Positions 10,753 to 59,451 of a stretch of DNA of 64,000 bases are shown in pieces (the first letter of the stretch is position 1; each line of letters opens with the position of its first letter). Under the pieces are notes generated by a model. It ran no database searches and was not told where the DNA came from. It saw only the letters and a program-made list of their open reading frames with translations. The translations under genes were made by a program, and so were the position numbers. The stretch is from Methanothrix sp. (GTDB lineage: Archaea; Halobacteriota; Methanosarcinia; Methanotrichales; Methanotrichaceae), in assembly GCA_963682135.1 (NCBI GenBank), contig OY821645.1:1856001-1920000 (forward strand). The letters are read 5' to 3'.

Positions 10753-12012
10753 GACTGCCCCGCTTTATCACCTGCTATTGCCGCTATAACATTCCACCAT
10801 CTCACATTGCAGAGCTGTTTTTTTAAAGTACACAATTATGCTTTTGCGTCTAAGGTTAGCAATCAGCTCCGCTATGCAGGCTTAAAGATGCTCAACTGAT
10901 ATTATGCCTATCAATCCTACCCCAATGATCATCCAGGCATCAGCCGCTTGGTGACTGGAGAAGTGAGCGCTCTAGTTAAACCGTCTTTACCCTCCTAATT
11001 CAAGGCGGATATGGAACCACCGGGATCTTTGTTTCCCTTACAGCAAGCTAAAGCAGTAATTTACCTAAACTCCCAACTAGTTAATAAATCCACCGAAAGG
11101 AGATTTCCGTATTAGTTCTTAGCACTATTGCGATGTCTTTTGAATCAGTACTGGTCTAACTAGCAACTCCAGTAATTAAATTTTTCAGAGATTTTGGAAC
11201 CGGTTCGTTTTTTCCCACATGAATCTCTAGTCGAAGGTTCTTCGGCCTGGGGCCTGAGATCTGGATAAGCTCTGCCAGGCGTTTAAAGCCTCAGCAAAAA
11301 GCCCCTTACAAGCCAGATCCTCCCTGTCTTCAGATGCCCATCGATCGATAGCTCTGGCTGCCATCCCATAGACTAGGATCTTGAAGCTGTCGCCAGCTCG
11401 AAATTCTTCCGGCTCGAAATCCTTGGTGGTTTCCCGTCTCGCTTTGTGTATCTGTGACCAGGTGGTTTTCAGGCAATCATTCTGCCCTTAAAGTCACGAA
11501 TTTTCATAATATCGATATCTGTGGAAAATATATTGCAAATTGATCTGATAAACGTTGATAAGTGGAGGTCATGCAATCCGTACTATGCTATTGGGGACTA
11601 TATCATTTAGAAGGTCCAGGATAATGGAGCAAATGATGTATTCGCATACCTGTAGATTATGTCTTGGGTCTGCTCAAAAGATCTCAGAAATTGGACACCA
11701 TCAGAGGGGGTCCTGCGGAAGACGAAATCCTTGTTTGTATAAGGCGCTCCCGAATGGGTGGGAGGATTATCAGTGCTGAGGGTGTGGGAGCCGCAGAAAG
11801 GCGAGATCTGGGCATAAGACCCAAGCCCTTGTCTTCCAAGTACCTTTTATAACGCTTAACAGCAGGTTTGAGGTCTTCCTTGGAAATCTCCTTCTTCCAG
11901 CCAAACGCTTCTTGGGCATTTTTGCATCATCCTTGAAGCGGCACTGAAAAAGAATCCTGTCACCTACAGCAAAAACCTGCGGATGCCAGTAAGCGAAAAT
12001 CGATATCAGCAG

Positions 12013-12095
12013 TGCGGGGGACGGGAGTCGAACCCGCGAACACCTTCGTGACAGGGTCCTAAGCCCTGCGCCTTTAACCACTTGGCAACCCCCGC
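12013..12095 (-). tRNA. tRNA-Leu(TAG), no intron, CCA not encoded
   Basis: Reverse complement GCGGGGG...CAGGG-CTTAGGA-CCCTG, long variable arm, GGTTCGACTCCC, CCCCCGC-A. Confidence 0.97.
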
Positions 12096-57770: not shown

Positions 57771-59015
57771 TTAGGAAGGAGGACAAGCGTTTTTTCCCAG
57801 ATTCGCTACCATCGCCTCAGCCCTTCTTCCCACCTCGGATGGGTCCAGAGGAACACGGGCCACGCCCGTTTCTATGGCGGCGCGAGCTACGGCTGCAGCC
57901 ACGGCGGGGACTACCCTTCGGTCCAATGGCGAGGGAATGATGCATACCTCGGACACGTTCTCAACCAGTCCGGCAATGGCCTGGGAAGCTGCGACCTTCA
58001 TAGCTTCATTGATGTCCGATGCCCGCACATCCAGAGTCCCGCGAAAGATCCCCGGGAAGCCCAGCACATTATTGACCTGATTGGGGAAATCGGATCGACC
58101 GGTGGCCACCACCCGCGCTCCCGCCTGCAAAGCCAGGTCGGGCATGATCTCAGGCACGGGATTGGCCATGGCAAAGACAATTGCGCCAGCTGCCATGCTC
58201 TTTACCATTTCAGGAGTCACAATGCCAGCCACAGACAGGCCCAGGAAGACGTCAGCACCCCTAATTGCATCGGCCAGGCTCCCTGTAACATTGCGGGGAT
58301 TGGTCATGCGGGCGATCTCCTGCTTGGCAGGGTTGAGGTCGGACCTGCCCTGGTGGATCACACCCCGGCTATCACAGAGTATGGCATCCTTTACCCCGAA
58401 GCTGTAGAGAAATTTGGTGACGGCGATGCCGGCAGCGCCAGCTCCGCTCACGGCGACCTTGACCTGTTCAAAGGTCTTGCCAACTACCTTGAGAGCATTG
58501 ATGAGAGCTGCCAGGGCAACCACGGCGGTGCCATGCTGATCATCGTGAAATACCGGTATCGACAGGATCTTCTTGAGACGCCCCTCAACCTCAAAGCAGC
58601 GTGGCGCACTTATGTCCTCCAGGTTGATTCCGCCAAAGACGCCCTCTATTTTGGCAACGGTCTCCACAATCACCGATGGGTCCTTGCTGCTTATCGCTAT
58701 GGGAAAAGCATCTATGCCCGCGAAGTTCTTGAACAGAATGGCTTTTCCTTCCATGACCGGTATGGATGCCAGCGGCCCAATATCACCCAGGCCCAGGACA
58801 GCAGTTCCATCTGTTACCACGGCTACAAGATTGCCCTTAGCGGTGTACTCGTAAACGTCATCTGGATTCTTTTCGATCTCGCGACAGGGTTCGGCCACGC
58901 CCGGAGTATAAGCTAATGAGAGGTCACGCACGGTTGCGCAAGGAACCTTGCTGTGGACGGCAATCTTGCCCTTGGCATCTTTATGAAATGCTAATGCATC
59001 ATCTCTTAGAGACAT
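57771..59015 (-). CDS. NAD(P)-dependent malic enzyme
   Basis: YTPGVA, TDGTAVLGLG, MEGK, NLED, FHDDQHGT and GAGAAG; start at MSLRDD. Confidence 0.95.
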   Translation of the reverse strand: MSLRDDALAFHKDAKGKIAVHSKVPCATVRDLSLAYTPGVAEPCREIEKNPDDVYEYTAKGNLVAVVTDGTAVLGLGDIGPLASIPVMEGKAILFKNFAGIDAFPIAISSKDPSVIVETVAKIEGVFGGINLEDISAPRCFEVEGRLKKILSIPVFHDDQHGTAVVALAALINALKVVGKTFEQVKVAVSGAGAAGIAVTKFLYSFGVKDAILCDSRGVIHQGRSDLNPAKQEIARMTNPRNVTGSLADAIRGADVFLGLSVAGIVTPEMVKSMAAGAIVFAMANPVPEIMPDLALQAGARVVATGRSDFPNQVNNVLGFPGIFRGTLDVRASDINEAMKVAASQAIAGLVENVSEVCIIPSPLDRRVVPAVAAAVARAAIETGVARVPLDPSEVGRRAEAMVANLGKNACPPS

Positions 59016-59061
59016 AACAACTCCTGTTTTTAGGATCCTGCGGCTAACTAGGGAGGAGCAA

Positions 59062-59072
59062 CAGATATAAAG
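59062..59072 (+). promoter_or_regulatory. Probable TATA box of the tRNA-Ser gene
   Basis: GATATAAAG about 30 nt upstream of the tRNA 5' end. Confidence 0.5.
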
Positions 59073-59098
59073 CATGGGTCCGACGGAGAATTGTAAGG

Positions 59099-59250
59099 GC
59101 CGGGGTGGCAGAGCGGACAATTTCAGCCGGCTTTAGGCCGACTGGAGTTCATACGCGGCAGGCTCGAGACCTGTTGTCCCTTCCTGGGACGCTTGGGTTC
59201 AAAATGATTGAGAGCGCGATAGCTCTCTCAGGAAAATCCCAACCCCGGCG
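59099..59250 (+). tRNA. tRNA-Ser(CGA) with two non-canonical introns (59121-59152 and 59204-59236)
   Basis: Acceptor GCCGGGG/CCCCGGC plus G73; anticodon arm GCAGG-CTCGAGA-CCTGT; long variable arm; T arm TTGGG-TTCAAAT-CCCAA after splicing; BHB-like junctions. Confidence 0.9.
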
Positions 59251-59301
59251 CTAATTGATTATGGAAAGTTTCATATCATAGCAGAAAAAGGCGATAAAGT
59301 T

Positions 59302-59451
59302 ATGGCTAGATTTCCAGAAGCTGAAAAGAGAATCTTGAATCTCAAGATATGCATGAGCTGCAACGCACGAAATCCTGTAAGAGCAACTCGCTGCCGCAAG
59401 TGCGGCTACAAAGGACTGAGGATGAAGTCCAAGGAAAATAAGACCGCTTAA
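59302..59451 (+). CDS. rpl40e: 50S ribosomal protein L40e
   Basis: Below the ORF-track cutoff; [49 protein letters not shown]. Confidence 0.97.

Follow-up and report, generated by a model that had tools for sequence, protein, structure and literature searches.

A transfer RNA (tRNA) gene for serine with anticodon CGA, split by two non-canonical introns, was confirmed at positions 59099 to 59250 of a 64,000-nt stretch of DNA from Methanothrix sp. (GCA_963682135.1, contig OY821645.1, positions 1,856,001 to 1,920,000, forward strand), the whole of which is referred to here as the window. In silico excision of the two introns (Table 1) left an 87-nt product that ARAGORN called tRNA-Ser(cga). The ARAGORN drawing and the sequence both presented the features of a class II tRNA-Ser, namely a long variable arm, the anticodon CGA and discriminator G73, the last being a feature of tRNA-Ser. 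The D-stem pair 12:23 of the spliced molecule was A.C. CCA was absent from the 3′ end of the gene, where CTA follows exon 3. RNAfold gave the unspliced RNA a free energy of −70.9 kcal/mol (z = −4.47; none of 200 shuffled sequences equaled it) and drew a cloverleaf with two extra hairpins. A preliminary description, made from the sequence by itself, had proposed introns at tRNA positions 21/22 and 59/60 with none at 37/38, together with an 87-nt restored tRNA. Stems, bulges and hairpins were all found in the sequence where it had placed them, and in silico splicing, a blind genome scan and orthologs agreed on a real Ser(CGA) gene with this arrangement. It is very probable that the locus is the sole functional tRNA-Ser(CGA) gene of the genome, giving a 152-nt precursor from which a tRNA-splicing endonuclease (EndA) of the α′2 type would cut two bulge-helix-bulge (BHB) introns, an old one in the D-loop and one in the T-loop gained within the host's family.

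Table 1. Coordinates of the tRNA-Ser(CGA) gene, its intron motifs and flanking features in the window
Feature	Position	Strand	Description
Conserved upstream box AGCAACAGATATAAAGCATGG	59057-59077 (feature 59056..59078)	+	Small variants in the window's own family, about 20-40 nt upstream
TATA-like sequence ATATAAAG	59065-59072	+	Within the upstream box
tRNA-Ser(CGA) gene, unspliced	59099-59250	+	152 nt; cloverleaf with two hairpin inserts
Acceptor stem, 7 bp	59099-59105 / 59243-59249		Discriminator G at 59250
Exon 1, 22 nt	59099..59120	+	Acceptor 5′ strand, U8, D-stem 5′ strand, D-loop to position 21
Intron 1, 32 nt	59121..59152	+	D-loop, tRNA position 21/22; relaxed HBh′-type motif
Intron 1 central helix (H/H′), 4 bp	59115-59118 / 59147-59150		GGAC / GTTC
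Intron 1 bulges	59119-59121; 59151-59153		5′ AAT; 3′ ATA
Intron 1 inner hairpin	59122-59146		
Exon 2, 51 nt	59153..59203	+	D-stem 3′ strand, anticodon arm, long variable arm, T-stem 5′ strand, T-loop to 59
Anticodon CGA	59166-59168	+	Within exon 2
Intron 2, 33 nt	59204..59236	+	T-loop, tRNA position 59/60; hBHBh′ motif
Intron 2 outer helix (T stem), 5 bp	59193-59197 / 59238-59242		
Intron 2 central helix (H/H′)	59198-59201 / 59231-59234		TTCA / GGAA; one A.G, the pair next to the 5′ bulge
Intron 2 bulges	59202-59204; 59235-59237		AAA; AAT
Intron 2 inner helix	59205-59230		
Exon 3, 14 nt	59237..59250	+	T60, T-stem 3′ strand, acceptor 3′ strand, discriminator G
Ribosomal protein L40e gene	59302..59451	+	PF01020, E value 1.4e-5; downstream of the tRNA gene

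The tRNA complement of the genome indicates a need for this gene. Set against the anticodons expected of an archaeon, the 51 whole-genome ARAGORN calls had two gaps, Ser(TGA) and Ser(CGA), and UCG codons occurred at 8.9 per 1,000 in a crude set of 652 long open reading frames (ORFs). The only Ser(TGA) gene of the genome was located at G000:C1:682188-682305 on the minus strand (118 nt), where ARAGORN had mislabeled it as "Ala(tgc) i(37,33)"; with 33 nt removed as an intron at 37/38, the call changed to Ser(tga). Ser(CGA) is therefore the sole remaining gap, and the window locus fills it. Another Ser(CGA) gene elsewhere had been named beforehand as a point to check, and exon BLAST, whole-genome ARAGORN, Rfam and the blind scan identified no second copy in the genome. 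Other candidates raised during the hunt for Ser(TGA) were discarded: exon BLAST returned chance matches of 13 to 15 nt (the two inspected were coding), a scan for T-arm and acceptor sequences gave one match that was not a tRNA, and an anticodon-arm regular expression gave 11 matches with no tRNA among them.

At least 10 other tRNA genes in the genome, roughly a quarter of the set, carried 37/38 introns of 15 to 134 nt (Ser-TGA, Ser-GGA, Tyr, Lys-TTT, Trp, Met, Gly-TCC, Arg-GCG, Arg-TCG and Asn). This is well above the share of intron-bearing tRNA genes quoted for euryarchaea in the accessible part of PMC4090602 ("less than 10%"). A search for Ser paralogs in four relatives yielded two Leu genes and one stretch that was not a tRNA. 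Separately, a class II tRNA in a related genome (L078, G078:C1:273901-273986, minus strand) combined a Ser-like acceptor stem and discriminator G with the anticodon TAA, and ARAGORN called it Leu(taa).

Neither ARAGORN nor Rfam detected the unspliced gene, as the preliminary description had anticipated of standard annotation. Run with or without the -i option, ARAGORN made no call at the locus, and the sole tRNA it found in the window was a tRNA-Leu at 12012-12095, which was also the single tRNA matched by Rfam at the gathering threshold. Relaxing Rfam to E values up to 10 on positions 58950 to 59400 gave no tRNA-like match, and a whole-genome search with RF00005 returned 46 matches at E values up to 1 and 47 at values up to 10, none of them at the locus. 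Annotation by ARAGORN or Rfam will therefore show such genomes as lacking a tRNA cognate to UCG. A blind BHB scan was run over the 3.04-Mb genome for sites combining a 4-bp helix with two 3-nt bulges and with helices flanking them, and ARAGORN was applied to the spliced products; nearby candidate pairs were double-spliced in silico (838,790 and 815,378, or 1,654,168 altogether). Among the products of the pair scan, the locus came back as Ser(cga), spliced with cuts identical to those in Table 1: a 32-nt intron after nt 22 and one of 33 nt after nt 73. Eight other loci in the pair pass and four in the single-intron pass were reported as new and were treated as false positives, their anticodons being already present and their "introns" mostly 50 to 105 nt long.

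Within the genus, 37 of 41 related genomes gave a match, and 19 same-genus loci carried the full gene at 149 to 158 nt and 81 to 92% identity. The resulting 20-row alignment had near-invariant exons and variable intron interiors, exon 1 being invariant except at position 21 of the row. RNAalifold recovered the cloverleaf and both inner helices from it, with six pairs changed on both sides. A class-wide survey of 301 genomes, each at least 80% complete, then gave the wider distribution, for which families are designated f and genera g. Matches were obtained in 79 of the 86 genomes of the window's family (f1), and the f1 matches listed spanned the whole query except at contig ends or in L048, where a longer intron 2 broke the match; the gene copy in G021 was broken by a run of N. 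Families f2, f3, f5, f6 and f7 matched over exon 1, intron 1 and exon 2, with an uninterrupted T arm, and f4 and f8 matched exon 2 only. DNA similarity gave no match in genera g6 (0 of 46 genomes) and g25 (0 of 6), even with a query from their own family.

From 70 loci, 62 could be parsed, yielding 56 unique sequences. Those dropped were L019 (an acceptor variant that failed the pattern; it has both introns), L023, L052 and L057 (lying at contig ends), L061 (in which the anticodon-arm anchor was missing), L063 (broken by a run of N), and L068 and L070 (partial matches). Intron 1 was present in 52 of the unique orthologs (17 to 47 nt, mode 31) and absent from four. Intron 2 was present in 38 of the 56 (30 to 44 nt), all 38 from the window's family, and absent from the other 18. 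In the intron-less loci L064, L065, L066, L071 and L072 (f4 and f8), the D-loop and T-loop matched the length and sequence pattern predicted for the joined loops, as they did in six intron-less loci outside the class (L167 to L171 and L173). Three loci of family f12, which belongs to another class (L164 and L165 from genus g52, L172 from g75), had a mini-intron of 17 to 19 nt at the same D-loop site and also an insert of approximately 30 nt in the variable arm, and L166 of family f20 had only a 37/38 intron (38 nt). ARAGORN mis-called the Ser(CGA) genes of these four loci as Gly or Leu. Shortened forms of intron 1 were seen in L056 (f6; 17 nt, with a 3-bp inner helix) and L062 (f7; 23 nt), both keeping the 4-bp helix and both 3-nt sites. 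Being common to seven families (f1, f2, f3, f5, f6, f7 and f12) in two classes, the D-loop intron appears to be old, and the T-loop intron appears to have been gained within the window's own family. Across the phylum, Ser(CGA) looks like a recurrent target of introns, which would occupy the D-loop, T-loop, variable arm or anticodon loop depending on the lineage. BLAST found no other copy of either insert in the genome.

The motif around intron 1 was conserved across these orthologs. GGAC paired with GTTC, GTCC or GTCT, giving four pairs in 52 of 52 unique sequences, with AAT, TAA, AAA, AAG or TAT as the 5′ bulge and ATA, AAA or TAA as the 3′ triplet. The first five inner pairs were 92.2% paired in 51 sequences versus 71.9 ± 1.8% with the 3′ strands shuffled (0 of 2,000 reached the observed value), and changes on both sides with pairing kept were found at all five positions tested. 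There was no outer helix beside the 3′ bulge: A14, G15 and C16 were unable to pair with the bases past the triplet, which puts the 3′ site within an internal loop by the D stem. At most 2 bp of outer helix could be drawn, if the bulge is read as 4 nt, which is short of a strict hBHBh′ motif. What could be identified was a central helix, one proper 3-nt bulge, an inner helix and a 3′ site facing unpaired A14-C16, and because no outer helix adjoins the 3′ bulge, intron 1 was classed as relaxed HBh′. Its numbering was fixed by covariation at 12:23, where most sequences have A.C but family f5 has A:T and L069 has T:A; the intron is therefore placed at 21/22.

Intron 2, which uses the T stem as its outer helix, has a full, near-canonical hBHBh′ motif with one weak pair in this genus. 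Among the 38 unique sequences, the central helix was TTCA/GGAA in 29, TTCA/TGAA (all Watson-Crick) in eight and TTCG/AGAA in one; the 5′ bulge was AAA, AAT or AAG and the 3′ bulge AAT in every case. The first seven inner pairs were 87.6% paired versus 75.2 ± 1.4% after shuffling (0 of 2,000 reached the observed value), and both-sided changes with pairing kept occurred at seven of seven tested positions. Owing to runs of A, shifting both cuts leftward by as many as 3 nt would give an identical product. The earlier suggestion that both motifs are relaxed thus stands for intron 1, with no outer helix at its 3′ bulge, and falls for intron 2, with its full hBHBh′ and a perfect TTCA/TGAA in eight of 38 orthologs.

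PF01974 matched the genome twice, both times within one frame and nowhere else. That frame is a 350-amino-acid ORF (L001:1267-2316) with two PF02778 plus PF01974 repeats and no separate β subunit gene. The closest loci to it, at up to 95% identity, came from Methanothrix sp. or Methanotrichaceae, in agreement with the methanogen host proposed beforehand. It aligned end to end with the α′2 enzyme of Archaeoglobus fulgidus (1R0V/2GJW; E value, 4e-40), its best solved relative, to which it is equal in length near the catalytic His, with no insertion. The catalytic Tyr/His/Lys triad, whose identity was taken from the available portion of PMC5829648, corresponded to Y287, H298 and K329 of the C-terminal repeat and was invariant in six EndA orthologs, and in the non-catalytic N-terminal repeat Ala stands in place of the His. 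That repeat also keeps a strongly conserved loop, FRVYPRGG.PG, where the A. fulgidus enzyme has a deletion. By these alignments, the single EndA of the genome is assigned to the ordinary α′2 type with no specificity loop. EndA sequences from intron-bearing lineages (the window's own, f3 and f12) and intron-less lineages (f4, f8 and f13) were collinear with this enzyme and 50 to 54% identical to it, and no insertion or deletion among these three and three lineages tracked the presence of Ser(CGA) introns. The sampled families with the D-loop intron all had the single α′2 EndA. The broadened splicing specificity that the preliminary description had suggested for the lineage found no counterpart in this enzyme; because the only endonuclease is an ordinary α′2 EndA without a specificity loop, such broadening is something we can only infer. 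RtcB was present in the genome.

Fourteen RNA runs held part of the stretch, and four were examined, all as assembled contigs. In a wetland metatranscriptome (X1), three contigs matched up to 59203 and continued with the letters of 59237-59253, that is, exon 3 and the first trailer bases. In a wastewater metatranscriptome from a separate study (X6), a 280-nt contig matched 59107-59203 with small differences inside intron 1, followed by 21 letters of exon 3 and a trailer of the same-genus type, and then matched 59275-59437 in the L40e gene. The junction of exons 2 and 3 (59203|59237), with trailer attached, therefore exists in RNA libraries of two studies. Two X1 records (1 and 2) were colinear contigs retaining intron 2. 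A further X1 contig, matching from 59151, was preceded by 28 letters unlike intron 1 or exon 1 and may derive from another organism or be a chimera. The extent of the X6 contig across the tRNA, trailer and L40e gene suggests read-through or co-transcription. As to the ordered splicing that had been put forward earlier, the X6 contig, which retains intron 1 but lacks intron 2, gives a weak hint; since exon 2 (51 nt) exceeds the 31-letter words used, this combination is not proven on one molecule.

Transcription could start from the conserved box approximately 30 nt upstream and yield the 152-nt precursor, at times running on towards L40e. The single α′2-type EndA would cut two nt past each strand of the 4-bp central helix, RtcB would join the exons, and CCA would be added later to complete the 87-nt class II tRNA. 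Removal of intron 1 at 59120|59153 would be as predicted from the intron-less orthologs, and that of intron 2 would be in keeping with its near-canonical motif and the joined form in the RNA contigs. Several points weigh against this account. The RNA contigs represent relatives with an identity of at least 88% instead of reads from this strain, and they are assemblies with no matched DNA control. Because DNA can be present in libraries of this sort, the joined form could in principle be DNA of an unsampled relative lacking intron 2; against a DNA origin, intron 2 was missing from none of the 38 unique family sequences. No exon 1-exon 2 junction was found in the RNA contigs, and no contig covered 59099-59136 in X1, X2 and X4. 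The minimum-energy structure from RNAfold drew neither 4-bp central helix and extended the inner hairpins instead. Energy models of the nearest-neighbor kind penalize 3-nt bulges and the alternative pairing was unconserved in other families, so this was not counted against the motif. The shuffle tests overstate significance because relatedness was ignored, and the counts of both-sided changes are the sounder evidence. That EndA acts on intron 1 unaided is an assumption.

The last point bears on the alternative that deserves most attention. Both introns would be real, and the α′2 EndA would be insufficient by itself for the one in the D-loop, the 3′ cut requiring help from a cofactor or RNA-binding protein, from another nuclease, or from an earlier event that reshapes the precursor, such as T-loop splicing or a modification. 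In the accessible part of PMC5829648, the A. fulgidus α′2 EndA cut an HBh′ D-loop intron mostly at the bulge and left it unfinished, and the enzyme here has no insertion near the catalytic His and no difference in insertions or deletions from those of three lineages with intron-less Ser(CGA). The X6 contig lacking intron 2 and still holding intron 1 would also suit such a scheme, although, as an assembly, it leaves the state of a single molecule unproven. The motif is nevertheless kept in seven families of two classes with the same single α′2 EndA wherever sampled, for which the simplest reading is that the enzyme copes in vivo, and we regard dependence on an additional factor as unlikely, yet far from negligible. 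The stronger proposition is that, in Methanotrichaceae and several other families belonging to the same phylum, the plain α′2 EndA needs no specificity loop to excise a relaxed HBh′ D-loop intron natively and with precision; it is put forward tentatively, at somewhat less than an even chance.

Two further explanations would deny the introns altogether. A decaying pseudogene, bearing two hairpin insertions and producing no working tRNA, could account for the silence of ARAGORN and Rfam at the locus and for the A.C at 12:23 in the D stem. The same A.C was found in intron-less orthologs, however, and the locus is the only Ser(CGA) gene of the genome, with near-invariant exons in 20 same-genus sequences, introns varying by compensatory changes, a conserved promoter and a spliced junction in RNA libraries, which together make decay extremely improbable. 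It is just as hard to credit that the inserts, both of which fold as stable hairpins, are expansion segments retained in the mature RNA or recent insertions of mobile elements. Retained hairpins would break the contacts of G18G19 with the T-loop, and the T-loop insert is missing from the RNA contigs exactly at its predicted borders; mobile elements would be at odds with the lack of a further copy in the genome. In either case, the inserts are fixed at the same two sites throughout the family with BHB geometry kept. Excision of both as introns from a functional precursor is thus the reading retained here.

The upstream box is probably the archaeal promoter of the tRNA gene, comprising a transcription factor B recognition element (BRE) and a TATA sequence, as judged from its position and from what is known of archaeal promoters. 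The upstream neighbor is a malic enzyme gene on the opposite strand; on the downstream side, the tRNA gene is followed by L40e and by a gene of the PcrB family (GGGP synthase-like). Elsewhere in the genome, nine near-identical 300-nt stretches at 390-nt spacing were observed at G000:C1:2752789-2756208 on the minus strand; they probably represent a tandemly repeated coding domain.

Features of this kind are already known; what is new is that they occur in this family, and that a relaxed D-loop intron is both old and widespread among lineages with only a plain α′2 EndA. A full-text literature search revealed no mention of this gene or of non-canonical introns in Methanothrix/Methanosaeta, although supplements such as Table S7 of PMC8450103 may list it. 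According to the sections available of PMC4090602, euryarchaea with α4 or α2 enzymes carry only a single intron in any gene, its BHB occupying the canonical position, and the portion of PMC4033280 at hand lists Methanopyrus kandleri and Methanothermobacter thermautotrophicus as euryarchaea with multi-intron tRNAs. In the corresponding part of PMC5829648, relaxed motifs are cut only by (αβ)2 and ε2 enzymes. So far as these excerpts go, reviews restrict α4/α′2 euryarchaea to single canonical 37/38 introns and name just these two species as euryarchaeal exceptions with multi-intron tRNAs (PMC4090602, PMC4033280, PMC5829648), and the two-intron gene described here departs from that. Introns at 59/60 are described in ARMAN-2 (excerpt of PMC3239211), and non-canonical introns from both Crenarchaeota and Euryarchaeota are modeled by tRNAscan-SE 2.0, which found 673 of them in 217 genomes (excerpt of PMC8450103). 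If the proposed removal of the relaxed intron is correct, the rule that α4 and α′2 enzymes cut only strict BHB motifs, relaxed ones needing the loop-bearing (αβ)2 or ε2 forms, would be incomplete. In that case tRNA-Ser(CGA) would have carried its D-loop intron, an ancient element, since before the split of two classes, and retention of the intron may reflect a function, for example in the timing of D-loop/T-loop modification or in tRNA quality control, rather than mere tolerance. With its two-intron gene, one motif of which is relaxed, and only a plain α′2 EndA, this cultivable and environmentally important methanogen family offers a natural pair of substrate and enzyme for gauging how strict α′2 enzymes are.

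Genes with several introns in Thermoproteales and other Crenarchaeota were reportedly described by Sugahara in 2008 and by Marck and Grosjean in 2003. The gene in the window resembles them in having several BHB introns in one gene, at non-canonical sites and missed by simple finders (as covered in the excerpts of PMC4033280 and PMC8450103). In Crenarchaeota, however, the (αβ)2 EndA carries the crenarchaeal loop, each genome has many such genes, and introns spread between genes, whereas here there is one gene with single-copy introns and vertical inheritance. In ARMAN-2 ("Candidatus Micrarchaeum acidiphilum"), the part of PMC3239211 consulted reports introns at 59/60 in pre-tRNA-Cys(GCA), of the hBH type, and in pre-tRNA-Pro(GGG), of the strict type; intron 2 shares exactly this position and the use of the T stem as outer helix. 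In that organism, in contrast, the three-unit ε2 EndA bears a specificity loop and disrupted tRNA genes are numerous, where the genome here has one such gene and a plain α′2 EndA. Along with these ARMAN-2 introns, the nearest known parallel is the pre-tRNA-Glu(UUC) of M. kandleri, which carries a relaxed HBh′ D-loop intron at 20b/21 and a canonical 37/38 intron (excerpt of PMC5829648). Both cases involve a euryarchaeal methanogen, essentially the same place in the D-loop, a proper bulge on one side only, a second intron and an endonuclease without a specificity loop. They differ in that M. kandleri has an (αβ)2 heterotetramer and its second intron in the anticodon loop, whereas the Methanothrix gene is Ser(CGA), with an α′2 enzyme, a second intron in the T-loop and a D-loop intron common to seven families in two classes.

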